Both the position numbers and the translations under genes were made by a program. Positions 3,951 to 38,110 of a DNA stretch of 43,245 nt are shown here, one piece after another. How positions within the stretch are numbered: position 1 is the first letter of the stretch; each line of letters begins with the position of its first letter. The notes below the pieces were generated by a model. That model made no database searches. It had not been told where the DNA came from and was given only the letters and a program-made list of their open reading frames with translations. The stretch is from an uncultured Muribaculaceae bacterium. GTDB lineage: Bacteria; Bacillota_I; Bacilli_A; RF39; UBA660. The DNA is taken from NCBI GenBank assembly GCA_964465805.1, contig CAYXLG010000005.1, positions 1-43,245 on the forward strand, given 5' to 3'.

Positions 3951-3956
3951 TTATTT

Positions 3957-6474: not shown

Positions 6475-6615
6475 ATGTTTACTAATACTAAGCAAATACT
6501 TAAATATATTTTTCTAATACTAATTTTTCTTTTTATGTTGAAAAATTTTTTTGGTTTATTTAAACTATTAATTATTTTTTTCTTAATTCTTTATCTCTTT
6601 AGAATAATAAGGTAA
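6475..6615 (+). CDS. Possible 46-aa hydrophobic mini-protein (low confidence)
   Basis: AGGTGAT precedes ATG 6475 by 3 nt. The product is MFTNTKQILKYIFLILIFLFMLKNFFGLFKLLIIFFLILYLFRIIR. It overlaps the ysxE-like 3' end convergently by 33 nt. AT-rich DNA easily produces such ORFs by chance. Confidence 0.2.
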   Translation: MFTNTKQILKYIFLILIFLFMLKNFFGLFKLLIIFFLILYLFRIIR

Positions 6616-7488: not shown

Positions 7489-8209
7489 TTTTTGCTGGAA
7501 TAATTAATTTGTCACCAATATTTAATGCATCAATATTATTATACACACCTAGTTCTTCTTTGGTAACTCCGTAATTTTGAATTAATAAATCTAAAGTATC
7601 ACCTTCTCTAACAACATATATTTTGTAAGTTGTATAAGTTTCACTACTACTATCAAAATTATCAAATAAGGAACTAGCAACCTCTACTTGGCGATTATCC
7701 TCCATTTCTTCTTCCCCTTCTCTATTTTTGGTTATTTCCTCATTATCATTTTGTTCATCTGAAACAGTTTCTTCAATAATATTAGTTCTTTCTACTTCAA
7801 ACTCTTCTTTTAAAATTTCTTCCTTTTGATTTTCCTCAATCTTTTCTTCTAAAACCACTTCTTCTTGTTTTTCAATCAATGGTTTTTCTTCTAAACGGTC
7901 AACAATTACTTCGATATTAATTACTAAAATATTGTCGTTTATTATTTCATAATAAAAATCATATATATCTACAATAACGTTATCAATATTATATTTATCA
8001 TCTATACTAACTTCAAATGGTATATTAAAAGAAAACGACTCAACATTGACGCTAGTATCAACCATTTTATAATCGCCACTAATGATAAATTCTCCTGATA
8101 CCATATTATCTTTATCAACCTGTAAAGTATGTTCAAGTGAAATGCTTGTTATTTCTGATAAATTAGTTTTAAAAATAATTTCTTTTTTAAATGGAATTAT
8201 TTTTTTCAA
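7472..8209 (-). CDS. spoVID: SpoVID-like sporulation protein (N-terminal SpoVID domain, acidic linker, C-terminal LysM)
   Basis: The N-terminus KKIIPFKKEIIFKTNLSEITSISLEHTLQV resembles B. subtilis SpoVID (LQFSVEESICFQKGQEVSELLSISLDPDIRV). A highly acidic E/D-rich middle follows. The C-terminal LysM is YKIYVVREGDTLDLLIQNYGVTKEELGVYNNIDALNIGDKLIIP. The start is set at TTG 8209, with GAGGG 8 nt upstream; the track's GTG 8218 overlaps that SD. Confidence 0.65.
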   Translation of the reverse strand: MKKIIPFKKEIIFKTNLSEITSISLEHTLQVDKDNMVSGEFIISGDYKMVDTSVNVESFSFNIPFEVSIDDKYNIDNVIVDIYDFYYEIINDNILVINIEVIVDRLEEKPLIEKQEEVVLEEKIEENQKEEILKEEFEVERTNIIEETVSDEQNDNEEITKNREGEEEMEDNRQVEVASSLFDNFDSSSETYTTYKIYVVREGDTLDLLIQNYGVTKEELGVYNNIDALNIGDKLIIPAKNDEED

Positions 8210-8235
8210 AAATATCACCCTCTCTATTTCATTTA

Positions 8236-15196: not shown

Positions 15197-15868
15197 TTAT
15201 CTAACTCTTCCATACTCTTTTTTATCACCTTTTACAAGTGATTTAGCTAAAACCTCTTTTAATAATCCTGTATCACCAGTTCTAGCACTAAGAACACATC
15301 CATCAATAAGTTTCTTTTTATCATCTTTAGTCCATTTACTATATTCTAATTTATAATTTAATGAAGGCTTTTTATTACTTATATATTGCATGTATTGTCT
15401 AAAAAATTCACGTTGTACTCTTCCATTTCCCTCTCTAAAAGGATGAATAATATCAAGTTCACCATAATAATGCGCAAGATATTCTAATAAAGATTCTTCA
15501 TCAGTCACCTTTTTTAAATCTCGCTTCATTTGTAATAATGTATACTCAAGATACTTAGCAACAAATTCTGGTCGACAAAAAGGAACACCACTTTTATTGA
15601 TGTTTTCTCTTCGTATTTTACCAGCAAAATCATACAAATCTTCAAAAATATATTTATGAATATCTAAATAATGTTGAATATCAAAATTCCCACTAAAATC
15701 ATTCAAGTAGATTTTGGACAATTTATATGTTGAATAACCCCTTTCAACATCCTCTAACAATTTTTGATCAAGTAAACCTAATTTATTAATTAATACATCT
15801 GTCCCTGGATAACAATATTGTGATTCATAATTAAGTAGTTTTTCATATTTATCATTATCTACCTTCAT
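15197..15868 (-). CDS. Fic-domain protein, class I toxin type (FicT/VbhT-like AMP transferase)
   Basis: The canonical Fic motif HPFREGNGRVQREF (HxFx[DE]GNGRxxR) is present. The N-terminus YCYPGTDVLINKLGLLDQKLLEDVE is typical of Fic/VbhT FIC domains. An ATGA overlap joins it to the upstream small ORF. Confidence 0.9.
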   Translation of the reverse strand: MKVDNDKYEKLLNYESQYCYPGTDVLINKLGLLDQKLLEDVERGYSTYKLSKIYLNDFSGNFDIQHYLDIHKYIFEDLYDFAGKIRRENINKSGVPFCRPEFVAKYLEYTLLQMKRDLKKVTDEESLLEYLAHYYGELDIIHPFREGNGRVQREFFRQYMQYISNKKPSLNYKLEYSKWTKDDKKKLIDGCVLSARTGDTGLLKEVLAKSLVKGDKKEYGRVR

Positions 15869-16153: not shown

Positions 16154-16918
16154 TTACAACTTAAATTTTTTAGATAATTTTTTTTGCTTATTATAATTTT
16201 GTTCTAACTCCTCGTCACTAAAAAAACTATTCATTTTAATTAAATCTTTCTTTTCAAAATATTTATTTAAAACATACATATGACGAATCGGACCATCAAC
16301 ACTCTGACTAATCGAATTCACATAAACATTAAATTTTTTCCCAACTTCATAATTAGTTATTTCACAATATAGATCATGGTTTTTACGTTCAAATTTTGAT
16401 AATAATTCAACTATATTCACAAGGTCATCAACCACTTTATCTTTAGAAATATTTTTATTGATACTTTTATTTATATTTCTAAAAAAACTATTGTCATTAT
16501 ATGCTTTAATATCTATTAGAAGTTTTTTTCTATTATGTTCTCTTCCTAACCTTGTTGTTACACCCTCTAAATTATAAACAGAATTAATAATATTATAAAT
16601 AGTCTCTTTCTCATCTAATGGTAAATACATCATAATATATGCCGCATCACCATAATTATGACCAGTACAACACATGTATGTTTCAATGTTTTTATCCCAC
16701 AAATTTAATAATAATTTTTCTAATTCAGGATTTTCTTCTGAAAATAACTTTGCAAAATAATTTTTATCCTTTAACGCATCCTCAAATTTTAAATGTTTAC
16801 CAAATTGATAATTTAACATTCTTTGCCTCCTACTTAAATTATTTAATATATTTTCAAGTGAAGTTATATTAACACTTTTTGAGATAATTGTAAAGCCCAT
16901 TTCCCCGTTTATTTCCAC
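16154..16918 (-). CDS. Hypothetical protein, 254 aa, no domain recognised
   Basis: This long ORF has a GTG start at 16918 preceded by GGTGAT. It has no TM segment or signal peptide. Its only notable motif is YMCCTGHNYGDAAYIMMY. It appears monocistronic, with its own terminator. Confidence 0.6.
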   Translation of the reverse strand: MEINGEMGFTIISKSVNITSLENILNNLSRRQRMLNYQFGKHLKFEDALKDKNYFAKLFSEENPELEKLLLNLWDKNIETYMCCTGHNYGDAAYIMMYLPLDEKETIYNIINSVYNLEGVTTRLGREHNRKKLLIDIKAYNDNSFFRNINKSINKNISKDKVVDDLVNIVELLSKFERKNHDLYCEITNYEVGKKFNVYVNSISQSVDGPIRHMYVLNKYFEKKDLIKMNSFFSDEELEQNYNKQKKLSKKFKL

Positions 16919-19610: not shown

Positions 19611-20990
19611 TTAATTATATTTTTTTTCTTTCATGATATTATTTACTAAATCTAAATATTCTTTTTGAATTTTTTCTAATAAAACTTCTGTTTTAGCCTC
19701 AAAACGCATTGTTAAACTTGGGGTAGTATTAGATACTCTAATTAAGACCCAATATTCATCATGTTCAACCCTAACACCATCTGCCTCATTAATACTCAGG
19801 TTTTTACTCTTAATAACTTCTTTTATATCATTCATTAATAAAAATTTACATTGATCACTTACAGTTAATTTTATTTCAGGTGTTGAATAATATTTATTTA
19901 TACCTTCTAATAATTCTGAAATTGTTTTACCAGTAATAGACAATACTTCTGCCATTCTAAGACCGGCATAAATACCATCATCAAACCCTGGAAATCTATC
20001 ATTAAAAAAGATATGACCTGAATACTCACCAGCTAATCCAACATTTTCTTCATGACATTTGCGATAAATATATGAATTACCAGTTCTATACATTATTTGA
20101 TTGTATTCTAACTTTTCTAGTTCATCAACTAATGCTTTTGAACATTTAACATCATAAAGTGCTGTTTTATTAGATAATTTATCTTGTAAAAAGCGATACA
20201 TAATAACTAAATATAAGTCATTGCTAATAATATTACCTAAGTTATCAACAATTCCAACCCTATCACCGTCAGCATCTAGTCCGATTCCTAAATCATAATT
20301 TAAATCAATAACTGTTTTCTGTAAATCTTTTAAATTCTCAGGAACTGAAGGATCTGGATGATGGTTTGGAAAGGTCGGATCACTTTCAGCATACAAAAGT
20401 TTGTACTCAATTGGTAAAGGATCAAGAATATCTTTAATAAAATTAGCCACCGTACCATTGCCACAATCAACGGCTACTTTTATTTTCTTATCACCAAAAC
20501 TAAGTGAATTCTTAATCATTGAAATATATTTATCTTTAATATTATATGTTTTAACTTCACCGTTTCCATCTTTGAAATTACCTTGAACAGTAAATTTATA
20601 AAAATCTTTTATCTCATCACCTAATGCATTACCTTTATTATTAAAAGATATTTTAAAACCATTATGGTCACTTGGATTATGACTAGCTGTAATCATAATT
20701 CCTGACCAAATATTTAAGTAATATCTTGCATAATAAAACATCGGTGTCGTTATTAGCCCTAAATTGATAACATTTATTCCTGTGCTAATAATTCCTTTTA
20801 GTAATGATTCACATAATAATGGCGAAGATTCACGATTATCATACCCAACTATTGCTTTAGTCATACCTAAATTACTAATATAAGTACCAAAACTACGTCC
20901 AAGAGTATACGCAAAATCTTCATTTATATCATTAGGATATATTCCCCTAATATCATAAGCTCTAAAAATTAAAGGATTTATTTTACTCAT
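19611..20990 (-). CDS. pgm: Phosphoglucomutase/phosphomannomutase (alpha-D-phosphohexomutase family)
   Basis: The active-site Ser loop ITASHNPSDHNGFK and the metal loop GLDADGDR are present, and the sugar loop is near GEYSGH. The start is set at ATG 20990 (MSKINPLIFRAYDIRG). The track's TTG 20999 lies only 3 nt from GGAGG. Confidence 0.9.
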   Translation of the reverse strand: MSKINPLIFRAYDIRGIYPNDINEDFAYTLGRSFGTYISNLGMTKAIVGYDNRESSPLLCESLLKGIISTGINVINLGLITTPMFYYARYYLNIWSGIMITASHNPSDHNGFKISFNNKGNALGDEIKDFYKFTVQGNFKDGNGEVKTYNIKDKYISMIKNSLSFGDKKIKVAVDCGNGTVANFIKDILDPLPIEYKLLYAESDPTFPNHHPDPSVPENLKDLQKTVIDLNYDLGIGLDADGDRVGIVDNLGNIISNDLYLVIMYRFLQDKLSNKTALYDVKCSKALVDELEKLEYNQIMYRTGNSYIYRKCHEENVGLAGEYSGHIFFNDRFPGFDDGIYAGLRMAEVLSITGKTISELLEGINKYYSTPEIKLTVSDQCKFLLMNDIKEVIKSKNLSINEADGVRVEHDEYWVLIRVSNTTPSLTMRFEAKTEVLLEKIQKEYLDLVNNIMKEKKYN

Positions 20991-22185
20991 AATGTTCAAG
21001 TTCCTCCTTTACTAATTTTTTATACTCATTAACACCCGGTTGATCAAAAGGATTAACATTTAAAAGATAACCACCAGTAGCTGCTGCCACTTCAAAAAAG
21101 TAAATTAACTGACCAATATTAAATGGAGTCAATTTATCCATTGATATAAAATTGCTATAAGTAGTATTTTTCATATGAGATTTAGCAACCTGGTTGGCAA
21201 CTAACTTATTTATATCATCTAAACTTTGATTGTATTTATCGATATAAATATCAGTACTATTATCAATATTAATAACAGTTTCAAATAGAAATTGGCTACC
21301 CTCTTGGTAAAACTGCCCTAGCGAGTGCAAATCCCCAGTATTTTGGGTAGCAACAGGAAGAATTCCTTTGCTATCTTTTCCTTGTGTCTCAGCAAATAAT
21401 TGTTTAATCCACTCAACAAAAGATGCTAATTTTGGTTCATAAACAGTAAATGATTCAACCATTTTTCCTTCATTATATAAGATATCTCTAACAATTGCAT
21501 AATCAAATGCCTTTTTTTTGTCTAGAGTTTTAGCACCTTTAAGCATTTCCTTAACATCAATCCCCATAACTGCAATTGGTAAAAGTCCAACTACTGTTAA
21601 AACAGAATAACGTCCACCAATATTACTTGGTAAAACAAATGATTTATAATTTTCCTTATTAACAAGTTTTCTTAACTCACCAATTCTAGCATCAGTAGTT
21701 ACTATAATTCTTTTTATTAAATCTTCTTTAGAATACTTTTTCTTTAATACATTATATATATATTCAAAATATAAATTAGTTTCAAATGTTGTACCTGATT
21801 TAGAAATCACATTAACAATAACATCTTTATCACTAATATAATCTAATAATTCTTCTAGATATTTTGATGATAACGACGATCCAAGAAAAATTATCCTTGG
21901 ACTATCATTTTTAAAATATGGTTTAAAAGCATCGGTAACAGCTTTGGCACCAAGTGATGATCCTCCTACACCAATAACAAGAAATACATCACAGTTTTTA
22001 CGAACATATTCACTTGTTTTGATAACATCATCTAAAACTTCTTCTGAAATACACTTATCTAAGTTATACCAATCATTCATATCTGTACCAGTTTCTAATT
22101 TGGTTTTGATATCTACAATTTTCGAATCATAGTTTTCAATATTTTCAAGTTGTTTCACGTAAGTAGTAAAATCAAATTTAATCAT
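20983..22185 (-). CDS. pgi: Glucose-6-phosphate isomerase (short Gram-positive type)
   Basis: PGI signatures NIGGRYSVLTVVGLLP and NPFDQPGVNEYKK are present. The start ATG 22185 is embedded in ATGATTAA, overlapping the stop of the upstream giant gene. Confidence 0.92.
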   Translation of the reverse strand: MIKFDFTTYVKQLENIENYDSKIVDIKTKLETGTDMNDWYNLDKCISEEVLDDVIKTSEYVRKNCDVFLVIGVGGSSLGAKAVTDAFKPYFKNDSPRIIFLGSSLSSKYLEELLDYISDKDVIVNVISKSGTTFETNLYFEYIYNVLKKKYSKEDLIKRIIVTTDARIGELRKLVNKENYKSFVLPSNIGGRYSVLTVVGLLPIAVMGIDVKEMLKGAKTLDKKKAFDYAIVRDILYNEGKMVESFTVYEPKLASFVEWIKQLFAETQGKDSKGILPVATQNTGDLHSLGQFYQEGSQFLFETVINIDNSTDIYIDKYNQSLDDINKLVANQVAKSHMKNTTYSNFISMDKLTPFNIGQLIYFFEVAAATGGYLLNVNPFDQPGVNEYKKLVKEELEHYE

Positions 22186-25100
22186 TTTTAGCACCTACTT
22201 TAACTATAACAGAATGTTTCTTCTTATCGTTTACTAATTCAATATAATTATTTTTAGCAACTTTATTATCAACTACTATTTCATTCTTAGTTTTGTTTAA
22301 TAAAACTTCTATTTCGTAAACAGTATCTTGATATTTATAAATTATTGAATATTTATCCCAAGTAGTTGGCACATTAGGTCTAATATAAAGTTTATCTCCT
22401 CGCAATTTAAATCCTAAAATATCTATTAGTGCAACACGGTAAAACCAGCCACTAGTACCAGTATACCAAGACCAACCACCTTGCGCACCAAAGTTTTCAT
22501 TACTATAAATATCTGCAACAAAAACATATGGTTCAACCTTATATTTTATAGCATCTTCTTTAGTTAATGCACGATTAATTGGATTAATCATTTGATAGTA
22601 TTTGAATGCTAAATCTGTTTTTCCAAGTTTTATTAAAGCCATAATATACCACGCTACCGAGTGAGTATATTGTCCACCATTTTCACGAATACCTTTAGGA
22701 TAATCCATAATATAACCTGGATAATCCCTATTATTAGCAAATGCTGGAGTTAATAATTTAATGATCTTTAAATCACGATCTACTAATTTAGTTTCAACTT
22801 CCTCAACCATTGTTTTGGCTTGCTTAGAATCCGCTATCTCCGTTAGAATAGCAAAACTTTGAGATAATAAGTCAATAGTACATTCCTCACTGTTTTTTGA
22901 ACCAACAGGATTACCATTATCAAAGAAAGCTCTTAAATAATGTTTACCATCCCACGCTACTTTTCTTATATTTTCTTTTAATTTTTTATTAAATTTAATA
23001 TATTCAGTTAAATTAATTTCTTTATTATATTTTTCAGAGAAGTCCATAAAATTATCAATTAACATATACAAGAAGAAACCAAGCCATACACTTGTACCTT
23101 TACCTTTGATACCAATGTGATTCATACCGTCATTCCAATCACCACCACCCATTAATGGTAAGCCATTTTCACCTAAATCATTCATTGCATTGTGAATAAT
23201 TAACTGACAACGCTCATACAATGTTGTTTTTTCTTCACTTACAATATAATTAATTAGTTTTTCATGTTCATGAGGTTCTAGAGCATCTCCTTCAATAAAA
23301 GAAACTTGCTCATCTAAAATGCTAAGATCTTCAGTAATTTTAATATATTCACTAATAGCATAAATAAGCCATAAGTAATCGTCTTTATATCGTGAACGTA
23401 GACCAATCTTTAATTCTGGATGCCACCAGTGCAAAACATCTCCTTCTTTAAATTGATGTGAAGAATTAATCAATATTTGTTTTCTAGTTATCTCAGGATT
23501 AATACTGCAAACATTCATTGAATCTTGAAGCTGATCGCGGAAACCATAAGCCCCACCAACTTGATAAAATCCGGCACGTGCTTGCAATCTTGATGCAATA
23601 GTTTGATATAATGCCCATCCATTAGTCATATAGTTAAAACTTTCATCAGGAGTTTTAACTTGAACTTTCGAAAGTATATTATCCCAATGTTCTTTAACTT
23701 TTTCTAGTTCATCATTAACCATACTTATTTCTTTATACTTAGTAGCTAGTATTTCTAAATTATCTTTAGATGTACTACCAAGTGTAAATACTATATCTTT
23801 TTCTTCTTTCTCATTAAGATAGAAGTCAACTTCAATCTCTTTGAATAATAAATTATTTAAAACAGCATTTTTAATATTCATACTACTTGACATAAAGGCA
23901 TATAAATTATTGAAATTTTGACTATAAACATTTCTAATACTTAAAAAATTATTTTTTTCATCAAATTGACTTAATAAATAACGTCCTGTTTTCTCTTCAG
24001 AAAACCCTAAAGTAGGATTAATCCAGTATTTCAAAATTATTCGTTGCTTACGTGCTGAATTGTTTTTTAATTTCATTTTATAAAATTTAACATTATCTTT
24101 TAAAGCAACAAACTCTGTTAAATTAATACCTACTTTTTTAAAGTTACCAATAAACTCACTATAACCAAATCCAAACTTAACTAAACTAAATTTTACTGTC
24201 ATATCATTAATTTTAAAACCCTCAGAATAGTCATTAACAAGGGTATCATTAATCCAAGAAGTTAATTTATACTCTCTACTGTTGTGAGCATAAGTAAACC
24301 CACAATTATTATTGGTTATAACCGTTCCGAAGTTTTCGTTAGAAACAACGTTAGACCATGCTGCAGGAGTATTTTGATCAACAATTATATATTCTTTACC
24401 ATTGTTTATAAATCCACCAAACTCATTAAAGAATTTTATTTTATTTTTATCATAAGGAATTGGTAAACTATGAACCATTTTTTCATTTATTTTCTTTTTA
24501 ACAGTATTCAACTTCTGAAGTTCATTAATATAAGCCTGTAAAGAATTATGAAGGCTGCTATCAATTTTTAAACGTGCTACTGTATTTAATAAAGTAAAGT
24601 GTGCTTCATCAATTGTATTTCTTTCTAAAACATAAATATTTCCTGGAGTTTTATAGAAATTATTTAAAGCATATATACGATACTTTTCATTTTCAATTTC
24701 ACGCATCAAAACTTTAGCATCGTCTTCATTATCACTATTAATAATAACTAAATCAACAAAAATAGATTTACTCTTATAATATTCAAAAGCATGCAATAAT
24801 TCTTTAACTAAACTTAAATCATCTAAATCCTCAACATCCAACAAAACAATTGGATTATCACCAGAAATACCAAATTCCCATAAATTAGTTTGATTTAAAG
24901 TGTTTTTTGATAAATTTTCTATGACGTCATCACTAGTAACAATATAATTAGTTTGTAACAAATAGTTAAGCATTGTATTGTATAAACGACAATCATTATT
25001 ACTCATATTAACTAACTTATTGCCTACATTACTCATAATAGTTGTTGTTTTAAAACCTTTCTCAGTAATAGTTTGTTTATTTGAATAAGTTCTGACAATA

Positions 25101-28100
25101 TTCAAAACTTGTTCTCTTGATTTACCAAATCCGCTTATTAAATAAACAGTTTTTTCCTCACCTTTTGGTACTAAAACCCTATTTCTTAAACTAATAATTG
25201 GATCCAAAGTTGTCCCAACATAATTACGGAGGTTTTTATTAAGTGCGACAGGATTATTAGTATTTCTTCCACGACCAATAAATTTGCCCCGATTAGTCTC
25301 ATACTCAAACTCACCTAAAGCATCTTCTACTAACAAACGATTAATCATGTAATACGTTGTTTTAGAATTTCTTAATTTGCGTCGCATAATAACTGAGTTT
25401 GTTTCTTTATCATATTCACTATAAACAAATAAATTATTAAATACAGGATGGCTTACATCATCCATATTCATAGCAAGTATTGGCTCAGTATAAGTAGTTA
25501 GTTCTAACTCTTTATCTTTATTACCAATATTCTTTAAAGTAATCTTTCTAATTTCAGCATGATGTGTTTTAGTTACAACAATTTCAGTTGTTGTAATAAT
25601 ATCTTTATCACCACGAACAAATTTAATATTATCTAGTGCAAAAACAACCTCATACTTTTTAGGCATAACATTCATAGGTGAATAAGTATTTGACCACACC
25701 TTTTTGGTTTGTAAATCTTTAATATATATAAACATTCCATAGTCTTGTTCCGTTACTTTACGATATCTATTTAAACGAATTTGTCTATATTTACTATAAC
25801 CATTACCACGATCATCAATAATGGTACTATATTTTGAATTAGATATAACTGATAACTCCGGTAATTTAGAAATATTATTAAATACTCTAATATCATTAAC
25901 AAATGGTTCTTTATCATAACTGTATTTCTTATACTTCATTATTTTGTAGTTAATATAAGGTTTTAATTGAACCTTTTCTTTTATTAACATATCAATCGCC
26001 TGATTACGAGTATCTTTAAAGAAATATTTTTGAATAACACCATTTTTTAAATAGTTAGTTAAACTACTTAAAATCATTGCTTGGTGATGGGCATAATAAG
26101 CTACAACTGGTGTTTTATCCAAACAATCATAAGACTCATATAACCCGTATTTACCAAACATGTTTAATGGTTCATATTTTTTAATATTCTTTAAAACCTC
26201 TCTTGGATATAATGGAAGCGCAAGCATCGAACTATAAGGTGAAATAACCATGCGCTCACACACTTCTTCACGAAGCCTTAATTGTGGAATACCGAAAGAT
26301 TTATATTTGTAATTTTGAGCATCATCAAGTTCATTATATGCCGATTCAGATATCCCCCATGGATACTTACGATACATTTTGCGCATATAATCCGATTGAG
26401 CATAATATGCAAAATAATAAGATTCATCTAAAATTGTATTAGGATAATTTGGCATAAATATTATTGGCATAAAATACTCAAAGAAAGTACCTGACCACGA
26501 AGATAAACCTTTTCTATCTTTGTACGCAATAAGGGTTTTATCCAAACTAAACCAATGTTTACTTGGAACATCACCTTTAGCAATTGCAACATAACTTAAA
26601 ATACGACTTTCACTCATAAATTTATTATAACTAAACGGTTCCATATAACCCCTATCAACATGATACCCAACACTGAAAACATCGCTGCTTGTATATAAAT
26701 ATTTAAAATCTGTCTTTTCAATTAATCTGTCAACAATTTCAACTAATTTATGTTGATCGTGAGCTTCCAAAAAACCTTTAGTTGTCATTAATGAGGCAAC
26801 AAAATTTCCACTATCAACACTAGAAACAAAATGTGGATACATAACTTCTAATGTTTTAATGTTATACCAATTATATAAATGACCATGCCATTTACTTAGT
26901 TTTTGTACTGTTTCAATAATATTTTCAATTAATTTATTTGCTCTATCTATTGAAATAAAATTTAATTCATATGCCGATATAACAGAGACTAAAGATAAAC
27001 CAATATTAGTTGGTGATGTTTTAATATCAAGTTTAATATCTCTGTTTTCTTGATAATTATCAGATATTAGATAATTGGTTTCTGAAGTTAAATTATTTTC
27101 AAAAAATCTCCAAGTATCTAATGCCAATTCTTTTAAATAATTAACATCTTCATTACTAATTTCTGCTTTTTCTGAAACTAAATCTTTACTTAAGAAATAA
27201 GTAATAACCGGTCCCACGGCAAACATTAATGCAACAAACAGTTTAGCTAATTTATAATCTTCAAAAACTATAGCCAATATAACTAATATAAAAGCAACAA
27301 AATAATTCATCCAAAATTGTTTTAGTGTACTAGTAATGTTTGTCTTTACTAACTTAGCAGCATCATCAGCAGTTACCCAATTTAATAAATGTTTTTTACT
27401 AACAGTCATGCGATATATCGCCCTAGTAAATGAGTTTAAATATAAATAAGCATTAAATGGAATAGTTGAAAATTCAGTTGCAACTTTTAATATAAATGCC
27501 TTATAGCCGTGCGCTAATACACGGTAATATTTTAACGAAATAGAATTTGCACGACTAACTTTTAAATTTTCAATCATTTGGATAATAAAAGGTAAAGCAT
27601 AAATAAGCATAACAAATAATATCCACCAAAACGGATTAATAACCTTACTACATAATGAAATTATAATTATTAGCAATAAGAAGAAACTCATTAATCCACG
27701 CCTAATGTTATCAAAAATTTTCCATTTACCTAATAATGTAATTGGATTTTTTTCCTTATTTCCATTAACATTTTTAACACTTCTTCCTAACCAACCAATG
27801 ATTTGCATATCTCCACGAGCCCATCTTGATCTTCTTGATGCATCTACTAAAAACTTAGATGGGAATCCATCAATTAAATCAATGTCAGTAACATTACCAG
27901 CCTTTACGTAATTACCTTCAAGCAAATCATGACTCAATATTAAATTGTTAGGAAAACGATTTTTTAATACTTGCTGAAAAACATCTAAATCATAGATCCC
28001 TTTTCCATAAAAAGTTCCTTCTTGAAAAACATCTTGGTAAAAATCAGGAAAAATACTGTTATATGAATCAAATCCACCAACACCCGCATAAACTTGAGAA

Positions 28101-29842
28101 AATAAAGACTTATTTGTTGATTCAACTTCTAAACTTATTCTGGGTTGTAATAAAGCATAACCACGAATGACTCTGTTTTTTTCTTCATTCAAAATTGGTC
28201 TATTTAAAGGATGTGCCATTGTTCCAGCTAACTTTAAAGCACTATTTAAGACTAATCTAGTATCAACATCTAAGGTAATAACATATTTTATTTTATGAGG
28301 AAAATTATTAAAAGTATGTACTTTAAAATATTCTTCCTGTTCTTTTTCGGTTAAATTACCTAATAATAAATCGTTAAAATGTAACAAGGCCCCTCTTTTT
28401 CTTTCAAATCCAAGCCAAGTCCCTTCCCCTTCATTATATTTCCTACGACGATACACAAAATTAAAAATGTTTTTACCATATTTTTTATTTAATCTTTCAA
28501 CTACTTCTAAACCGCCTTGAACAATTTTCTCATCATTTTTATGGTGTTCTTCATTATTTTCAAAAGTATCACCAAGCAAAGTAAAATATATGTTTTTTGT
28601 TTTATTAATTAAATAATATTGTTCTAAATTTTCAAAAACTTCTTCAATTTTTTCTCTGTTTTTAATAATAGTTGGAATAACAACCATAGTTTTAAATTCT
28701 GTAGGGATTCCTTTTGAAAAATCTAATTTTGGTAACGGTTTAGTACCATAAACTTTCAATAATATTTTTTGTAATATTGGAATTATTAATTCACTTATAG
28801 GGAATAGTAAAACAATAAATCCCAAAAATCGATAAGAACTAAGATAAGTAGATAAAAAGCAACTTATAACTATAGTTAATACCAAAATAGTTGTTAAATA
28901 GAAAACAACCCTTTTCTCGTTAGATTTTTGCATTTCTGCAATACTTTCACTAATATTATTTCCTTCATCCAAAATATCATTAACAACTTCATCTAACGTT
29001 ACATTTTTTCTTTTAGCTTCTTTCAATAATTGATTACGAATTAATGCTTTAGTTTCTAATGTCATAGTTGAATAATATTTATCATTCTTAAGTATTTTTT
29101 CAACGTCATTAACCTTTTCATAAATATTTTCCATAACAAAAAGGTTACTTTTCTTTATACTGTGAAAAATATTATTAATTAAAATATTTGTTTTTGTATT
29201 TGTTAAATGCTCTTCATTAATTACATCACGCATAACTATTCTGTTTTTTAATAAAAAATTATTCAACATTTGAAAAATCAAATTAGAATCATTATCTAAT
29301 TCTTTAAGTTGTTCATTAAAATAAACAATAAAATAATTAGATGTTTTATCCAAATCAATTAAATGTTCTAATGATATCTCTTGTTGATTTAGTAAATCAA
29401 TTTTTAATTTAACAATTAATTTATCAACCGTTTTCTTGTCCTTTAATTTTGCAGCTTCTATTTCACAAATTTCTGCTATTTTTTTCAATAATAAAACTTT
29501 TATCACTAATGGTATTATTGATATTTCTTTATATTTTAAATTATATCCCGTTGTTTTTTGATAATCGATGACTTCATCAATTACTATTTTTTCGTCAATT
29601 TTATAATTGTACTTTTCTAAAATGTTTTCAAACATTTCATACATATCGATATATCTATTAGTATATTTATATTGTTTTTTATTTTTAACAAATCGACATA
29701 TATTTACACGTTGTTCTTCTAATAAATAATAATTATCCACTATCCACTCATTAATAATTCCTACAAAAAAATGATTGTTAATCATTTTAATTAATTTTTT
29801 ATAGTGCTTTTTTATCTTTCTAAAATCTTTTTTTACTACCAT
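22178..29842 (-). CDS. cgs: Cyclic beta-1,2-glucan synthase-like multidomain enzyme (N-terminal domain, TM, GT84-like glycosyltransferase, TM cluster, cyclization region, GH94 phosphorylase domain), 2554 aa
   Basis: GT-region motifs are TMVVIPTI, ITLDVDTRL (DxD), LSHDLLEG and RRSRWARGDMQI. Hydrophobic clusters lie at about aa 312-375 and 700-880. The middle region includes TSPTNIGLSLVS and WHGHLYNWYN. GH94 motifs are YGFRDQLQD, GGGDWNDGMN and RENGGQYTHSVAW. The domain order equals that of Cgs/ChvB/NdvB. Confidence 0.8.
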   Translation of the reverse strand: MVVKKDFRKIKKHYKKLIKMINNHFFVGIINEWIVDNYYLLEEQRVNICRFVKNKKQYKYTNRYIDMYEMFENILEKYNYKIDEKIVIDEVIDYQKTTGYNLKYKEISIIPLVIKVLLLKKIAEICEIEAAKLKDKKTVDKLIVKLKIDLLNQQEISLEHLIDLDKTSNYFIVYFNEQLKELDNDSNLIFQMLNNFLLKNRIVMRDVINEEHLTNTKTNILINNIFHSIKKSNLFVMENIYEKVNDVEKILKNDKYYSTMTLETKALIRNQLLKEAKRKNVTLDEVVNDILDEGNNISESIAEMQKSNEKRVVFYLTTILVLTIVISCFLSTYLSSYRFLGFIVLLFPISELIIPILQKILLKVYGTKPLPKLDFSKGIPTEFKTMVVIPTIIKNREKIEEVFENLEQYYLINKTKNIYFTLLGDTFENNEEHHKNDEKIVQGGLEVVERLNKKYGKNIFNFVYRRRKYNEGEGTWLGFERKRGALLHFNDLLLGNLTEKEQEEYFKVHTFNNFPHKIKYVITLDVDTRLVLNSALKLAGTMAHPLNRPILNEEKNRVIRGYALLQPRISLEVESTNKSLFSQVYAGVGGFDSYNSIFPDFYQDVFQEGTFYGKGIYDLDVFQQVLKNRFPNNLILSHDLLEGNYVKAGNVTDIDLIDGFPSKFLVDASRRSRWARGDMQIIGWLGRSVKNVNGNKEKNPITLLGKWKIFDNIRRGLMSFFLLLIIIISLCSKVINPFWWILFVMLIYALPFIIQMIENLKVSRANSISLKYYRVLAHGYKAFILKVATEFSTIPFNAYLYLNSFTRAIYRMTVSKKHLLNWVTADDAAKLVKTNITSTLKQFWMNYFVAFILVILAIVFEDYKLAKLFVALMFAVGPVITYFLSKDLVSEKAEISNEDVNYLKELALDTWRFFENNLTSETNYLISDNYQENRDIKLDIKTSPTNIGLSLVSVISAYELNFISIDRANKLIENIIETVQKLSKWHGHLYNWYNIKTLEVMYPHFVSSVDSGNFVASLMTTKGFLEAHDQHKLVEIVDRLIEKTDFKYLYTSSDVFSVGYHVDRGYMEPFSYNKFMSESRILSYVAIAKGDVPSKHWFSLDKTLIAYKDRKGLSSWSGTFFEYFMPIIFMPNYPNTILDESYYFAYYAQSDYMRKMYRKYPWGISESAYNELDDAQNYKYKSFGIPQLRLREEVCERMVISPYSSMLALPLYPREVLKNIKKYEPLNMFGKYGLYESYDCLDKTPVVAYYAHHQAMILSSLTNYLKNGVIQKYFFKDTRNQAIDMLIKEKVQLKPYINYKIMKYKKYSYDKEPFVNDIRVFNNISKLPELSVISNSKYSTIIDDRGNGYSKYRQIRLNRYRKVTEQDYGMFIYIKDLQTKKVWSNTYSPMNVMPKKYEVVFALDNIKFVRGDKDIITTTEIVVTKTHHAEIRKITLKNIGNKDKELELTTYTEPILAMNMDDVSHPVFNNLFVYSEYDKETNSVIMRRKLRNSKTTYYMINRLLVEDALGEFEYETNRGKFIGRGRNTNNPVALNKNLRNYVGTTLDPIISLRNRVLVPKGEEKTVYLISGFGKSREQVLNIVRTYSNKQTITEKGFKTTTIMSNVGNKLVNMSNNDCRLYNTMLNYLLQTNYIVTSDDVIENLSKNTLNQTNLWEFGISGDNPIVLLDVEDLDDLSLVKELLHAFEYYKSKSIFVDLVIINSDNEDDAKVLMREIENEKYRIYALNNFYKTPGNIYVLERNTIDEAHFTLLNTVARLKIDSSLHNSLQAYINELQKLNTVKKKINEKMVHSLPIPYDKNKIKFFNEFGGFINNGKEYIIVDQNTPAAWSNVVSNENFGTVITNNNCGFTYAHNSREYKLTSWINDTLVNDYSEGFKINDMTVKFSLVKFGFGYSEFIGNFKKVGINLTEFVALKDNVKFYKMKLKNNSARKQRIILKYWINPTLGFSEEKTGRYLLSQFDEKNNFLSIRNVYSQNFNNLYAFMSSSMNIKNAVLNNLLFKEIEVDFYLNEKEEKDIVFTLGSTSKDNLEILATKYKEISMVNDELEKVKEHWDNILSKVQVKTPDESFNYMTNGWALYQTIASRLQARAGFYQVGGAYGFRDQLQDSMNVCSINPEITRKQILINSSHQFKEGDVLHWWHPELKIGLRSRYKDDYLWLIYAISEYIKITEDLSILDEQVSFIEGDALEPHEHEKLINYIVSEEKTTLYERCQLIIHNAMNDLGENGLPLMGGGDWNDGMNHIGIKGKGTSVWLGFFLYMLIDNFMDFSEKYNKEINLTEYIKFNKKLKENIRKVAWDGKHYLRAFFDNGNPVGSKNSEECTIDLLSQSFAILTEIADSKQAKTMVEEVETKLVDRDLKIIKLLTPAFANNRDYPGYIMDYPKGIRENGGQYTHSVAWYIMALIKLGKTDLAFKYYQMINPINRALTKEDAIKYKVEPYVFVADIYSNENFGAQGGWSWYTGTSGWFYRVALIDILGFKLRGDKLYIRPNVPTTWDKYSIIYKYQDTVYEIEVLLNKTKNEIVVDNKVAKNNYIELVNDKKKHSVIVKVGAKND

Positions 29843-30020
29843 ACATATATCACCCCTACAACTATTATATTATACAATATTAGTATACCATATATTTAGT
29901 CAAAGCCAAAATATTTTAAGTCTTAAATTATCAAATTAACTAATGCTATATATAGCTTTTTATGTTTTTTTCCGAAATAATAATTTATATAAAATTAAGT
30001 ATATAATGGTATATATTTTA

Positions 30021-33445: not shown

Positions 33446-34897
33446 TTATAAGATTACCATTGCTGTAGTTAATATAATAGCTGACACTATTGCAATAGTA
33501 AGTACTACTTTAAAGGCCCACTTGAACCAAGTCCTATATTCTACTTTAGCAAGTGCTAAGCCTCCCATAATTGAACCACAAGTTGGTGTAATTAAATTTA
33601 CCAGTCCATTTGCAGCAACAAAAATCATAATTGTTACTGATGGATTTAATCCAATACCATCTGCTACCGGAGCAACAATTGGTGTTGATAAGTTTGCTAA
33701 TCCCGAACTTGATGGCACTAAAATTGATAAGAAAATATGTAATAAATAATTCATTGGTGCAAAGACATATGCTGGGGTTCCTTGTAATGCATTAATAGCA
33801 TTTTCAATGATATAATGCCCTAAACCGGTTGTATTCATAATTACACTAATACCACGTGCAACTGCAATAATCATAACAACTTCAACAATTTCTCCTACAC
33901 CTTTCATAAATACTTGAATAATTCCTTCTTCTCCTAAATCAGCAACAATTCCAATAGTAACAGCCATAATTAAAAACCATGTTGCAGCATCTAAGAAATA
34001 AAAATATCCAAAACAATTACCTGTTAATATTGCTGACCAATGAGTTCCAGCATCAGCCACCTCTGGACTAATAATTCCAAAATCAACCCAAGGAATAAAT
34101 CCAATAATCATAACTACAAAAGTAAGTCCAAATAACCATAAAACGATTTTTTGACGACCTGTTAATGTAGCCTCATTTTCATGTTCTTTTTTAACAAATT
34201 CTTCTTCCATATCTTTTTTTTCTTGTAACGATAAGAAAGTAGAACCTTTATCTTTTTTGACCTTTTTCGCATATCTCATAACAAAAAACACTGAAATCAA
34301 ATATGCACTCAACCATAAAATTACACCTAAAGGTAAAATAATTGATTGATCTGCTGCAATACCTTCTGGTAATGCACTAATAGCAGCCCCTACTGCAAAA
34401 GGGTTAATTGTAGATCCAAGTACCCCAGAACCAGCACCCAACAATACAATCGCTGATCCAACAAGTGTATCATATCCTATTGCAACCATTGTTGCTGCTA
34501 GTAAAATATAAAAACCAACAGTTTCTTCCAGCATTCCATAAGTTGTTCCACCAATTGAAAAGATAAACATTAATACTGGAATAATCAATAATTCATTACC
34601 TTTCAATTTTTTAACAAGAGCAGCAATTCCGGTTTCTAATGCCCCTGTATGTTGAACAATACCAAGAAAACCACCAAGAATTAAAACGAAAATACAAACA
34701 TCTACGGCATCAACAAAACCATTTACTGGAGCCATAACAATATCTGATAGCTTAGCGTTTGTAACTTCTGGTATAAACCATGTAATAGCAGAAACTATAA
34801 CTAATAATATTAATATTATAGAAAATGCAGTAAGTCCCTTTTTACCCATATTTGTAGGTGACTTTGCTTTCTTTTTTATCTCTTCCATTCTTTTCAC
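33446..34897 (-). CDS. YfcC/DcuC-like (ArcD-family) membrane carrier, putative arginine:ornithine antiporter
   Basis: This polytopic 483-aa protein has a YfcC-type N-terminus ([25 protein letters not shown]). It is the last gene of the arc cluster and overlaps the arcC stop by 4 nt. Confidence 0.8.
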
Positions 34898-35832
34898 TCC
34901 TTAATTATTTTTGTACCTGTTTTTCCTTCAATTGCTTCTTTAACTTTGTCTAGTGAAGTAATAATAGCTTGGCCTTTTGGATTATTTTCAATAAAATCAA
35001 TACAAGCCTCTATCTTAGGTAACATACTTCCTTTGGCAAATTGATTTTCCAAAATATATTCCTTAGCCTTTTCGACTGATAACTCCTTTAAGGCCATAGC
35101 ATTTGGTTTACCGTAATTAATGTAAACTTGTTCTACAGCTGTTAAAATAAACAAGATATCAGCCTCCAAATCAATAGCTAATCTAGCACATGATTTGTCT
35201 TTATCAATGACAGCATCAACTCCTTTGTAACCAAGGTCAGTAACTACAACAGGAATTCCACCACCACCAATAGCAATAACAATATTTTTATCATCAACCA
35301 ATTGCTTAATACTATCAAGTTCGATAATACTAATTGGGTTAGGAGAGGGTACAACTCTCCTATAACCACGACCAGCATCCTCGATAAATTGATAGCCTGT
35401 TTCTTTAACAAGTTGTTTAGCTTGTTCTTTTGTGTAAAATATACCAATTGGTTTGGTCGGGTTAGTAAAAGCCTTATCGTTAGCATCAACTAGAACTTGT
35501 GTTATTAATGTCACACAATTTTGAGAAAGTTTTCTCATTTTAAGTTCATTAATAATTGCTTGTTGCAAGTGATAACCGATATACCCCTGACTCATTGCAC
35601 CACATTCAGGAAAAGGAATAATTGGAGTACCTGCATCATTGTTATATGCAAACTCCATTCCAGTATTAATCATTCCTACTTGCGGACCATTACCATGACC
35701 AATGATAATTTTATTGCCATCTACTATTAAATCAACAATGCTTTTGGCAGTTGATTTAACCAAATTTAATTGCTCTACTGGGTCATTCCCAAGAGCATTT
35801 CCTCCTAAAGCAATTACAATCTTATTGTTCAT
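34894..35832 (-). CDS. arcC: Carbamate kinase
   Basis: [15 protein letters not shown]..., GHGNGPQVG and GGGGIPV are classic carbamate kinase motifs. Confidence 0.95.
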
Positions 35833-36856
35833 CTAATACCTCTAATTTTTCTAGTTCATCAAACTCTTCATTAGATAAAGTTGCGTACATAATTGCCTTA
35901 ATTGTATGCATTCTATTTTCAGCCTGTTCAAATACTAAAGATTTTTCAGACTCAAACACTTCATCAGTTACTTCCATTTCTTTTAATCCATACTTAACAT
36001 ATACATCTCTAGCAACAAAAGTATTTAAATCGTGAAATGATGGTAAACAATGTAAGAAAATGCAGTTTGGATTAGCAATATCCATCACACGTTTGTTTAC
36101 TTGATAAGGCTTCAAGAGTCCAACTCTTTGTGACCAAATATAATCCGGTTCCCCCATTGATACCCAAACATCAGTATAAATAATATTTGCATTAGCTACA
36201 CCTTCATCAACATTACTAGTTATAGTAATAGTTGTCCCATTTTTCTCAGCTAGCATACGACTTGTTTTAATTAGATTTAAGTTAGGATATAATTCACTTG
36301 GAGTTACACAAGTATAATTAATTCCCATCTTAGCACACATAACCATTAATGAATTAGCAACATTATTTCTTCCATCACCCATATATACTAGTTTTAATCC
36401 TCTTAAATATCCAAAATGTTCTTCAATCGTTAATAAATCTCCGATCATTTGAGTTGGATGAAAGGTATCTGTTAAACCATTCCACACAGGAACACCTGAA
36501 AATTTTGCTAATTGCTCAACATGATGTTGCTCAAACCCACGATATTCAATACCATTATATAATCTTCCAAGAACTCTAGCAGTATCTTCAATACTTTCTT
36601 TTTTACCCATTTGACTACTACCAGCTTCTAAATATGTTACTCCCATCCCCAGATCATAACCAGCAACCTCAAATGAACATCTAGTTCTTGTCGAAGTTTT
36701 TTCAAACAAGATAACAATATTTTTACCTTCTAAGTATTTATGAGGAATATTATTTTTTTTCATCAATTTGAATCTTTTGCCAAGTTCTAAAATATAAAGT
36801 ATCTCATCTTCTGAATAATCTAATAGCTTTAAAAAACTTTTCCCCTTTAAATTCAT
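35822..36856 (-). CDS. arcB: Ornithine carbamoyltransferase (catabolic context)
   Basis: STRTRCSFE (carbamoyl-phosphate site), HPTQ, DVWVSMG and HCLP motifs are present. Confidence 0.95.
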
Positions 36857-36871
36857 ATTATAGTCCCCTCT

Positions 36872-38110
36872 TTAATTTTCTCTATATAACGGCATACTCA
36901 TACATCTTGGGCCTCCACGACCACGCGATAATTCACTTCCATGCATTTCTAATACTTTTAATCCATATCTTCTTAAAAGTGCATTGGTAATGTTATTTCG
37001 ATCATAAACAATAACTACACCTGGTGCGATACATAATGTATTAGAGCCATCATTCCATTGTTCACGTTCTGAAATAATTTGATCTCCAGCACCACAAGGA
37101 ATTAAAGTTATATCTCGACCTAAATACTTTTCTAAAATATTTTCTAAACCGTCTTCCATTTTTTTTACATTAATTAGATTCTCTTCGTGGTCACCTTCTC
37201 TTGGTGTAATTTCAAATACTTCTAGAGTTTCCATAATACCAGGATGATAAGTAAATTTATCATAATCAATTTGTGTAAATACTGTATCAAGGTGCATAAA
37301 GGCACGGCAATTTGGTATTTTAAATGCCAAAATAGTATTAATCCTTGAGGTAGGATCTTTAAATAAATTAGCAGCTAATAATTCAATACTTTCTGGTAGT
37401 GTTCTTTGAGAAATACCAATTGCTAAAGTATTTTCGTTAAGTACTAAAATGTCCCCACCCTCAATATGATAATCATTATATCTGTCATAATATTTAGTAA
37501 CCATATCCTTGTAATCAGGATGATACTTAAATATATACTCTGCATAAATTGTTTCTCTATTTCTTGTAACAGCATACATTCTATTTAAACTTATACCATT
37601 ACCGATAGATGCAAAAGGATCCCTTGTAAAAACCAAATTTGGCATCGGATCAGCTAAAAATTTATTTTCCTCAGTAACTAAATCAACAAGTGAGTGTTCC
37701 TCATCTCTTTCCATAGCATGAAGTTCATTAATATTAATACCCTCCATTGTTTTTAGCACTAATTCTTTAGTATCCTGGAAATTATTTAAAAATTCATAAA
37801 CAACTTCTTTGTACTTAGGTGTTGTAATACCTGCTTCCTTAATAAACTGTCTTAAAAATTTTTCCCTAATTTCAGGACTTAAATCTAATGTTTCAACCAT
37901 TAAATCTTCCAAATAAACAACTTCTGCACCATTGTCCCGCATGATTTGTACAAATTCATCATGCTCATCTTGTGCAACTTTTAGATAAGGAATATCATCA
38001 AATAACAACCTAGTAAGTGAATCTGGTGTTAAATTTAGGAATTCATTACCTGGACGGTGCACCAACACCTTTTTTAATGTTTTAATTTCGTTATTAACAT
38101 TAATAACCAT
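36872..38110 (-). CDS. arcA: Arginine deiminase
   Basis: The N-terminus has LKKVLVHRPGNE. FTRDP, MHLDTVF and the C-terminal catalytic Cys in GGPRCMSMPL are present. Confidence 0.95.
   Translation of the reverse strand: MVINVNNEIKTLKKVLVHRPGNEFLNLTPDSLTRLLFDDIPYLKVAQDEHDEFVQIMRDNGAEVVYLEDLMVETLDLSPEIREKFLRQFIKEAGITTPKYKEVVYEFLNNFQDTKELVLKTMEGININELHAMERDEEHSLVDLVTEENKFLADPMPNLVFTRDPFASIGNGISLNRMYAVTRNRETIYAEYIFKYHPDYKDMVTKYYDRYNDYHIEGGDILVLNENTLAIGISQRTLPESIELLAANLFKDPTSRINTILAFKIPNCRAFMHLDTVFTQIDYDKFTYHPGIMETLEVFEITPREGDHEENLINVKKMEDGLENILEKYLGRDITLIPCGAGDQIISEREQWNDGSNTLCIAPGVVIVYDRNNITNALLRRYGLKVLEMHGSELSRGRGGPRCMSMPLYREN

Follow-up and report, generated by a model that had tools for sequence, protein, structure and literature searches.

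A homologue of the synthases that make cyclic beta-1,2-glucan, with a compact cyclization domain, in an operon with pgi and pgm, from uncultured low-GC Bacilli

The stretch of DNA considered here, hereafter the window, comprises 43,245 nucleotides of contig CAYXLG010000005.1 (GenBank assembly GCA_964465805.1), deposited as an uncultured Muribaculaceae bacterium and placed by GTDB among the Bacilli_A (RF39, UBA660). On its minus strand lies a gene, cgs, encoding one polypeptide in which an N-terminal domain (NTD), a GT84 glycosyltransferase, a cyclization domain (CY, family GH189) and a GH94 phosphorylase follow each other collinearly, and which is homologous over its full length to a characterised synthase of cyclic beta-1,2-glucan (Cgs). 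From the alignments described below, we consider it probable that the gene is a functional Cgs orthologue whose product makes beta-1,2-glucan rings. Two peculiarities mark the clade to which it belongs, namely a compact CY domain and an operon in which cgs is translationally coupled to pgi and, in some loci, to pgm.

Homology and domain architecture

The cgs open reading frame (ORF; 22178..29842, minus strand) starts with ATG and runs without interruption over 2554 codons. With A at 0.37, T at 0.35, G at 0.17 and C at 0.10 on the coding strand, the stop-codon probability is 0.094 and a stop should turn up every 10-11 codons, so that 2554 stop-free codons would occur by chance with a probability of about 1e-110. 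An earlier note on this DNA, made from the sequence alone, had described the same single ORF, omitting only its strand, and all the motifs it quoted are found in the translation: ITLDVDTRL (starting at amino acid (aa) 522), LSHDLLEG (636), RRSRWARGDMQI (670), TSPTNIGLSLVS (942), WHGHLYNWYN (985), YGFRDQLQD (2099), GGGDWNDGMN (2232) and RENGGQYTHS (2386). The note had also recognised a domain order of the Cgs/ChvB/NdvB type with GH94 at the C-terminus, and both claims are borne out by Pfam and by a full-length alignment to a solved structure.

In Pfam, the GH94 catalytic domain (PF17167) was matched at aa 2052-2477 (E 9e-114), the GH94 supersandwich (PF06165) in two stretches (E 2e-84), of which only the best, aa 1328-1571, was located, and the Glycoamylase fold (PF10091) at aa 1076-1275 (E 6e-20). 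The NCBIfam scan of the protein returned no match, because a model is lacking and not homology, and the GT84 region is covered by no Pfam or NCBIfam model. Comparison by phmmer with the cryo-EM structures of Agrobacterium tumefaciens Cgs (8rf0 and 8rf9; hereafter At) gave a collinear, nearly full-length alignment of 1347 bits, in four segments spanning residues 23-2503: residues 23-286 aligned to At 82-349 (weakly, with 12 bits), 321-1021 to At 421-1115, 1041-1985 to At 1262-2245 and 2006-2503 to At 2296-2793. Over 452 residues the GH94 catalytic region can be laid on At 2342-2793 with no gap, at roughly 55% identity by manual count, and the middle region matches the cyclization domain of Thermoanaerobacter italicus (TiCGS, crystal structure 8wy1; hereafter Ti) with an E-value of 7e-99. 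The E-values of the matches to solved domains range from 1e-99 to 1e-137. The resulting architecture, from the N-terminus to the C-terminus, is as follows.

28910..29842, minus strand: N-terminal scaffold domain, aa 1-311, some 96 aa short of its Agrobacterium counterpart; the collinear alignment is weak and the boundaries are approximate
28772..28909, minus strand: transmembrane (TM) helices 1-2, aa 312-357, predicted by a Kyte-Doolittle hydropathy scan
27695..28771, minus strand: GT84 domain, aa ~358-716, by residue-level alignment to 8rf0
27194..27694, minus strand: TM helices 3-4 (aa 717-757) and 5-6 (aa 842-883), joined by a cytoplasmic segment, predicted by hydropathy and aligned to At 804-990
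25943..27193, minus strand: CY (GH189) domain, aa ~884-1300, without the four-helix insertion, by alignment to 8wy1
25007..25942, minus strand: GP1, first GH94 supersandwich subdomain, aa ~1301-1612, with the PF06165 stretch 1328-1571 and alignment to At from 1559 onward
24533..25006, minus strand: Rossmann-fold-like (RFL) insert, present, aa ~1613-1770, aligned with At 1847-2012; boundaries approximate
23690..24532, minus strand: GP2, second supersandwich subdomain, aa ~1771-2051, as suggested by the alignment to At
22412..23689, minus strand: GP3, GH94 catalytic (alpha/alpha)6 domain, aa 2052-2477, by PF17167 and the ungapped alignment to At
22178..22411, minus strand: C-terminal beta-sandwich tail, aa 2478-2554, and stop codon, with a weak PF03633 match at 2479-2513

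The second PF06165 stretch would thus correspond to the GP2 region (aa ~1771-2051). The hydropathy scan predicts three pairs of TM helices (312-357, 717-757 and 842-883), six in total; the note had been right on the hydrophobicity of these regions and wrong on their number, having counted two clusters. The even pairing of the TM helices, together with the At structure, would place all the large soluble domains on the cytoplasmic face.

Conservation of the catalytic residues

The functional residues mapped onto the window protein come from the studies of At Cgs (PMC10901819) and of TiCGS (PMC10834661). The SEQRES index of 8rf0 coincides with the numbering of PMC10901819, D624/D626 sitting on the DAD of 'TLDADTRL'. 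For 8wy1, whose construct consists of Met, residues 1005-1591 and LEHHHHHH (596 residues), the index plus 1003 gives the TiCGS numbering. The correspondences obtained are these.

GT84: D425 (At D527), UDP binding
GT84: D525/D527 (At D624/D626), DxD motif
GT84: Y594 (At Y694), primer tyrosine in the IF1-homology loop
GT84: D639 (At D739), catalytic base
GT84: R673-W674 and R676 (At R773-W774 and R776), RW motif
GH189: S1007/D1010 (At S1101/D1104), CY pocket
GH189: E1078 (Ti E1356, At E1300), acid/base
GH189: E1122 (Ti E1400), tuning E1356
GH189: E1166 (Ti E1442), nucleophile
GH189: H1252/H1253 (Ti H1536/H1537), tuning E1442
GH94: R2102-D2103, D2103 corresponding to At D2393, active site
GH94: D2238 (At D2528), catalytic acid, second D of DWND
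GH94: RENGGQYTH, 2386-2394, conserved motif

As judged from these alignments, the mapped catalytic and key residues are present in all three enzymatic domains, and by its residues the protein fits the CAZy families GT84 (of GT2-like fold, with an (R/Q)xxRW motif), GH189 (beta-1,2-glucanotransferases with an (alpha/alpha)6 domain) and GH94. The GH94 motifs, previously described as intact, are so, D2238 falling on At D2528 in the ungapped alignment, and the aspartates of the DxD motif (D525/D527) likewise align residue for residue with their At counterparts. The sequence checks by which the note had offered to give up its identification thus leave it standing.

Conservation was evaluated over 80 sequences aligned with MAFFT, namely the window Cgs and 79 homologues from genome loci. 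Each key residue is kept in 75-80 of the 80 sequences (75-79 for the GT84 residues), and the column of the primer tyrosine holds Tyr in 78 of them and a gap in the other two. Among the aligned members of the window's own clade the key residues are invariant (13/13, and 12/12 for the GH94 residues, the sequence from L007 being truncated).

Coupling of cgs to pgi and pgm

The gene is followed, on the same strand, by two genes of hexose phosphate metabolism, and it is preceded by a spacer with promoter-like signals.

29843..30020, minus strand: spacer of 178 nt between feoB and cgs, with promoter-like hexamers and a ribosome-binding site (RBS), from a consensus scan and direct reading
20983..22185, minus strand: pgi, Gram-positive-type glucose-6-phosphate isomerase (3ifs, E 2e-90; NF010697, E 1e-118), probable ATG at 22185
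19611..20990, minus strand: pgm, PgmG-like phosphoglucomutase/phosphomannomutase (NF046027, E 3e-125, below the cut-off), probable ATG at 20990

The candidate hexamers of the spacer are TTGGCT/TTGACT ... TG-n-TATACT, then TATAAT, and a candidate RBS, GGGGTG, lies 8-9 nt 5' of the cgs ATG; both are pattern matches only. Both gene junctions are 8-nt overlaps of the form ATGnnTAA, preceded by a Shine-Dalgarno motif. At the first, ATGATTAA, cgs ends with AAA AAT GAT TAA and pgi has an in-frame ATG at 22185 with an AGGTG RBS; at the second, ATGAGTAA, pgi ends with CAT TAT GAG TAA and pgm has its ATG at 20990 with an AAGGAGG RBS. No terminator-like site was found between cgs, pgi and pgm. On this neighbourhood the earlier note stood in part: it had correctly reported that no exporter adjoins the gene, and it had missed the conserved operon downstream.

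To count the linkage we considered the 18 clade loci with downstream sequence and the 67 loci retrieved outside the clade (loci are designated by numbers, and WIN is the window). The pgi gene lies directly 3' of cgs in 17 of the 18 clade loci (WIN, L001-L006, L008-L011, L056, L066 and L081-L084), its start falling between -22 and +6 nt from the cgs stop, and beside cgs in none of the 67 loci outside the clade. A third gene, pgm, completes the series in six clade loci (WIN, L001, L003, L081, L082 and L084). The flanks of the pair vary across the clade in at least six ways. Upstream of cgs are found feoAB (WIN, L001, L084), tsaD with a nucleotidyltransferase gene (L081), tsaD with an unrelated 396-aa ORF (L003) or a recombinase gene (L082); in L083 uvrB/UDG is upstream and parB downstream, L002, L004, L005, L010 and L066 share an unrelated common block, L006 and L011 have a different divergent neighbour, and L009 shows another context. 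The maintenance of a gene pair between proteins that have diverged to 44-50% identity, amid flanks that have been shuffled, therefore argues for selection on the co-expression of cgs and pgi.

Genes that could be related to the supply of nucleotide sugar were noted in two of these loci. In L081 a gene for a 247-aa sugar-1-phosphate nucleotidyltransferase, weakly AglF/GalU-like, stands directly 5' of cgs (9160..9903, plus strand). In L082 a galU gene (26548..27405; TIGR01099, E 6e-94) lies between pcrA and ligA, a few kb from cgs, and at the same position in L081 a gene with the NTP_transferase Pfam domain begins at 27625 and is cut by the end of the locus. Neither galU nor a cgs-adjacent nucleotidyltransferase was found in the 43-kb window.

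Concerning L082, whose Cgs is 73% identical to that of the window, the recombinase gene directly 5' of cgs, in place of feoAB, encodes a large serine recombinase of 488 aa with Resolvase and Recombinase domains (8437..9903, plus strand).

A compact cyclization domain

The window protein is about 264 aa shorter than the 2818-residue chain of 8rf0; the shortness had been noticed before, with a figure of about 300 aa that was too high and with no indication of where the residues are missing. Relative to 8rf0, about 59 aa are absent at the extreme N-terminus, 37 before TM1, 127 at the four-helix insertion of the CY domain (At 1115-1262), 39 within GP1-GP2 and 30 before GP3, while the C-terminal tail is 26 aa longer. 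In the alignments to 8rf0 and 8wy1, neither At 1115-1262 nor Ti SEQRES 149-301, which form the four-helix motif, has a counterpart in the window protein, and the loss of this insertion (roughly 127-150 aa, 127 aa relative to 8rf0) accounts for the largest share of the deficit.

The extra helices of TiCGS were called unique to CGSs by Tanaka et al. (PMC10834661). In Agrobacterium the four-helix motif protrudes outward from the CY domain and forms a back-to-back dimer, and it is not catalytic (PMC10901819). Since the insertion lies in no catalytic site, its absence is no bar to membership of the Cgs family; lacking the dimer motif, the compact enzyme is probably monomeric, or associates otherwise than Agrobacterium Cgs.

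The extent of the insertion can be followed by the distance between the motifs VDSGN and WGISE, which for the clade of the window amounts to 153-154 aa (153 in the window Cgs itself), against 152 aa in three high-GC gut metagenome-assembled genomes (MAGs) of Oscillospiraceae/Clostridiales, 165 aa in one Acidobacteriota MAG and 256-459 aa in all the remaining homologues in which both motifs were found. The compact forms outside the clade belong to L014, L015 and L041 (the gut Oscillospiraceae/Clostridiales MAGs, with Cgs of ~2350-2450 aa, L014 having 62% GC) and to L071. Their occurrence in gut Clostridia and in an Acidobacteriota MAG shows that not every member of the family has the insertion.

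Taxonomic distribution and descent

A scan of GTDB species confirmed 144 homologous loci, of which 80 were retrieved, and showed that Cgs homologues are distributed across many phyla. Among the Bacillota they occur in Alicyclobacillus mengziensis, Paenibacillus tarimensis and Acidaminobacter hydrogenoformans, and in MAGs of Peptococcaceae, Heliobacteriaceae, Oscillospiraceae and Selenomonadaceae. CAZy GT84 contains about 1930 intact CGSs (PMC12102758), and the family is listed in CAZyme inventories of Aneurinibacillus, of clostridial MAGs and of rumen metatranscriptomes (PMC7996765, PMC7229112, PMC8728904). Moreover, the cyclization domain of TiCGS, which on its own turns linear beta-1,2-glucans into rings, is the founding member of GH189 (PMC10834661). 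Since homologues are common in Bacillota and a CY domain from this phylum has already been characterised, there is nothing new in a monoderm having a Cgs homologue, and the gene adds one more member to a family already known and widespread; the surprise implied by the note at finding a Cgs in a low-GC monoderm was overstated.

The closest relative of the window Cgs, with 80% identity, comes from the MAG 'Mollicutes bacterium AS20ysBPTH_155', which is syntenic over feoAB-cgs-pgi-pgm and the convergent ATP-binding cassette (ABC) importer. For the low-GC Bacilli clade as a whole, clustering at 90% identity leaves more than 120 clusters, with lengths of 2518-2572 aa and 49-80% identity, plus three shorter partial entries, nearly all of them metagenomic. 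That so many orthologue clusters hold this length at this level of divergence indicates purifying selection. In the databases the members are named 'glucoamylase family protein' or 'hypothetical protein' by NCBI and, for one of them, 'cyclic beta-1,2-glucan synthetase' by JGI. The clade is therefore systematically under-annotated, the identification as Cgs corrects these names, and beta-1,2-glucan synthesis looks widespread in uncultured low-GC Bacilli of gut and digester.

In a neighbour-joining (NJ) tree built on 2497 well-aligned columns, without support values, the low-GC Bacilli sequences form a monophyletic clade set among those of other Bacillota. The GC content of cgs is 26.7%, against 27.7% for the whole window. 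A recent horizontal transfer from Proteobacteria was considered and rejected, because the gene has the composition of the window and its clade nests among Bacillota Cgs.

Three loci titled 'uncultured Muribaculaceae bacterium' (L003, L008 and L056) carry the cgs-pgi pair of the low-GC Bacilli type. L003 (28% GC) is syntenic with the window over tsaB-rimI-tsaD, pgm and the ABC importer, and L008 has 27.5% GC. The Muribaculaceae labels of these three look wrong, or the bins contaminated.

Host, exporter and other genes of the window

The envelope of the host can be approached through other genes of the window. A YsxE-like spore-coat protein (6583..8218, minus strand, E 7e-32) and a LysM protein similar to SpoVID (5051..6289, minus strand, E 3e-9), both below the NCBIfam cut-offs, adjoin a gene for a protein with PASTA and polysaccharide-deacetylase domains, and in the locus of one relative the germination genes GerA and GerAC adjoin the same operon. 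These PASTA, LysM and spore-coat-like genes, together with GerA/GerAC in the relative, support a host that is a walled member of the Bacilli from a spore-forming lineage, though they are no proof of its envelope type. The earlier inference of a monoderm is hence reasonable on the same grounds, and it is indirect.

No ChvA-like exporter was detected by a motif and hydropathy heuristic anywhere in the 43-kb window, so that what had been said of the immediate surroundings of the gene holds for the whole stretch. The ABC systems of the window are binding-protein-dependent importers only, and no membrane ABC proteins were found among the conserved neighbour families of the clade loci. A heuristic combining Walker-A, LSGG and TM helices pointed to exporter candidates in two of 83 sequences (82 loci and the window), namely L013 and L077. 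A 583-aa ORF with which ChvA was to be probed for, from locus L048 (Rhizobiaceae), was rejected as a spurious high-GC ORF. The Brucella exporter gene, cgt, is not known to adjoin cgs, and such linkage is not universal in Proteobacteria; the missing linked exporter is therefore weak evidence.

The window also contains a 5S rRNA and the genes valS with a T-box, lon, ligA, pcrA, a Fic protein gene, feoAB with mntR, and tsaBDE-rimI. The following features were observed besides.

3765..3954, minus strand: T-box leader (126 bits), upstream of valS (1161..3791)
15197..15868, minus strand: Fic-domain protein, adenylyltransferase-like (E 1e-26), between pcrA and a 254-aa ORF
16154..16918: the 254-aa ORF, which has no family match
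33446..38110, minus strand: arginine deiminase cluster, with arcA, ornithine carbamoyltransferase, carbamate kinase and a DcuC-type carrier

In L082 the Fic gene is found at the same relative position as in the window.

Predicted function and alternatives

The conservation described above makes it possible to propose how the enzyme would work. Its six TM helices, arranged 2+2+2, would hold the soluble domains at the cytoplasmic face, where GT84, following the model for Agrobacterium (PMC10901819), would glucosylate its own Tyr594 and extend the chain from UDP-glucose. GH94 would trim the non-reducing end with phosphate, giving glucose-1-phosphate, and GH189, with E1166 as nucleophile and E1078 as acid/base, would cut and rejoin the chain, releasing the ring; the rings expected of a Cgs have a DP of about 17-25. 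The cgs gene would be transcribed from its own promoter and be translationally coupled to pgi and pgm, whose products would connect fructose-6-phosphate, glucose-6-phosphate and glucose-1-phosphate to Cgs. We infer that flux through Pgi and Pgm serves to supply the precursor of UDP-glucose (by an unlinked GalU) and to recycle the glucose-1-phosphate released by length control, and we lean, if only slightly, towards this role for the operon. The product would reach the wall or the medium through an unlinked exporter, or would remain in the cytoplasm.

Several observations weigh against this proposal. The NTD matches At with 12 bits, thus weakly, and the loss of the insertion, together with ~70 aa of further deletions in the GP region, might alter the ring size or abolish cyclization. 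No exporter is linked to cgs, and galU is missing from the window. L085 has cgs without pgi, the sole exception in the clade, so that the linkage is not obligatory, and pgi may be the single housekeeping copy of the genome. The NJ tree carries no support values, and in the literature we found no study of a full-length Cgs, or of its product, from a monoderm, the isolated CY domain alone having been assayed.

The genes cgs, pgi and pgm could alternatively form a cytoplasmic beta-1,2-glucan cycle, in which glucan would be formed while hexose is abundant and afterwards broken down to glucose-1-phosphate by the GH94 domain of the same enzyme, to enter glycolysis through Pgm and Pgi, comparably to glycogen synthase and phosphorylase. 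In uncultured gut and digester Bacilli of a walled, spore-former lineage, a compact, probably monomeric Cgs hard-wired to pgi (often also to pgm) would then run this cycle with no dedicated exporter, the glucan serving as reserve or osmolyte. The predicted cytoplasmic position of the soluble domains (2+2+2 TM helices and the At topology, PMC10901819) is in its favour, as is the lack of an exporter gene in the window and of any conserved beside cgs in the clade. The conserved partners are, moreover, exactly the enzymes that carry glucose-1-phosphate to fructose-6-phosphate, and the catalytic residues of GH94 are strictly conserved. However, the GH94 domain that has been characterised only trims chains and is dispensable (PMC10901819). 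A ring offers a phosphorylase no free end, so that a ring-opening glucanase would be required, of which the neighbourhood shows no sign; Pgi and Pgm serve the biosynthetic direction equally well, and the exporter argument loses weight by the comparison with Brucella. For these reasons we regard such a cycle as unlikely. If true, it would give beta-1,2-glucan a role quite unlike its periplasmic, host-interaction role in Proteobacteria.

A second possibility concerns the product, which might be a linear beta-1,2-glucan or rings of clearly different size, for instance a wall- or spore-associated polymer. It is suggested by the absence of the CGS-unique insertion (PMC10834661) and of ~70 more residues around GP1, RFL and GP2, given that the landscape from the primer tyrosine to the GP site has been proposed to set the ring size (PMC10901819). 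Nevertheless the insertion of Agrobacterium protrudes and serves dimerisation, not catalysis (PMC10901819), and in the window protein both catalytic glutamates and the tuning E/H/H residues are conserved and the RFL subdomain is retained, which leaves this possibility more doubtful still. That the gene is the decaying, functionless leftover of a proteobacterial cgs gained by horizontal transfer, for which one could invoke the apparently small and AT-rich genome of the host and the first description of the family in Alphaproteobacteria, is effectively refuted by a 7.6-kb ORF intact in 27% GC DNA (chance ~1e-110), by catalytic residues invariant over a clade diverged to 44-50% identity, by more than 120 clusters of equal length, by a composition of cgs equal to that of its flanks and by nearest outgroups that are other Bacillota and not Proteobacteria.

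A functional, ring-forming Cgs thus remains the reading we favour. Its overall significance is modest, since a gene fairly ordinary for a known family leaves the understanding of the family unchanged. In the literature searched we found no study of the role of cyclic beta-1,2-glucan in bacteria without a periplasm, and the conserved cgs-pgi(-pgm) operon offers a concrete handle on this role. A compact Cgs without the dimerisation helices could also provide a scaffold of reduced size, be it in structural studies or to produce cyclic glucans enzymatically.

Comparison with known systems

Cyclic beta-1,2-glucans are periplasmic osmoprotectants and host-interaction factors of Proteobacteria. With the enzymes that make them there, At Cgs (8rf0, 8rf9; PMC10901819), Brucella Cgs and Sinorhizobium NdvB, the window protein shares the order NTD, TM1-2, GT84, TM3-6, CY, GP1, RFL, GP2, GP3. 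The TM domain of At Cgs has six helices (PMC10901819), the same number as predicted here, and the two have in common the UDP-binding and catalytic aspartates, the RW motif, the primer tyrosine in the IF1-homology loop, the acidic residues of CY and the catalytic aspartate of GH94. The overall identity of the window Cgs to the Rhizobiaceae homologues (n=2 retrieved) is about 33%, and 31% in the best segment. The hosts differ, that of the window being, as its genes suggest, a walled low-GC member of the Bacilli without an outer membrane and therefore without a periplasm to take the product. The genomic setting differs too, since the window cgs has no adjacent exporter gene of the chvA/ndvA type and shares its operon with pgi and pgm.

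The CY domain of TiCGS (8wy1; PMC10834661) also comes from the Bacillota, and its core is matched (E 7e-99) with E1442, E1356, E1400 and H1536/H1537 all in correspondence. It has the extra alpha-helices (SEQRES ~149-301) that the window clade lacks, the outline of the latter resembling GH144 and GH162 glucanases. The stand-alone GH94 enzymes, that is, the 1,2-beta-oligoglucan phosphorylases (Listeria innocua Lin1839, PMC3960220; LpSOGP) and the cellobiose and chitobiose phosphorylases, share the GH94 fold and residues with the C-terminal 500 aa, to which the cellobiose phosphorylases 8ho9 and 3qde are matched with E-values of ~1e-60. These enzymes differ in being soluble, catabolic proteins of ~800-1100 aa without GT84, GH189 or a membrane anchor, whereas the window Cgs joins all of these to its GH94 domain in one polypeptide.

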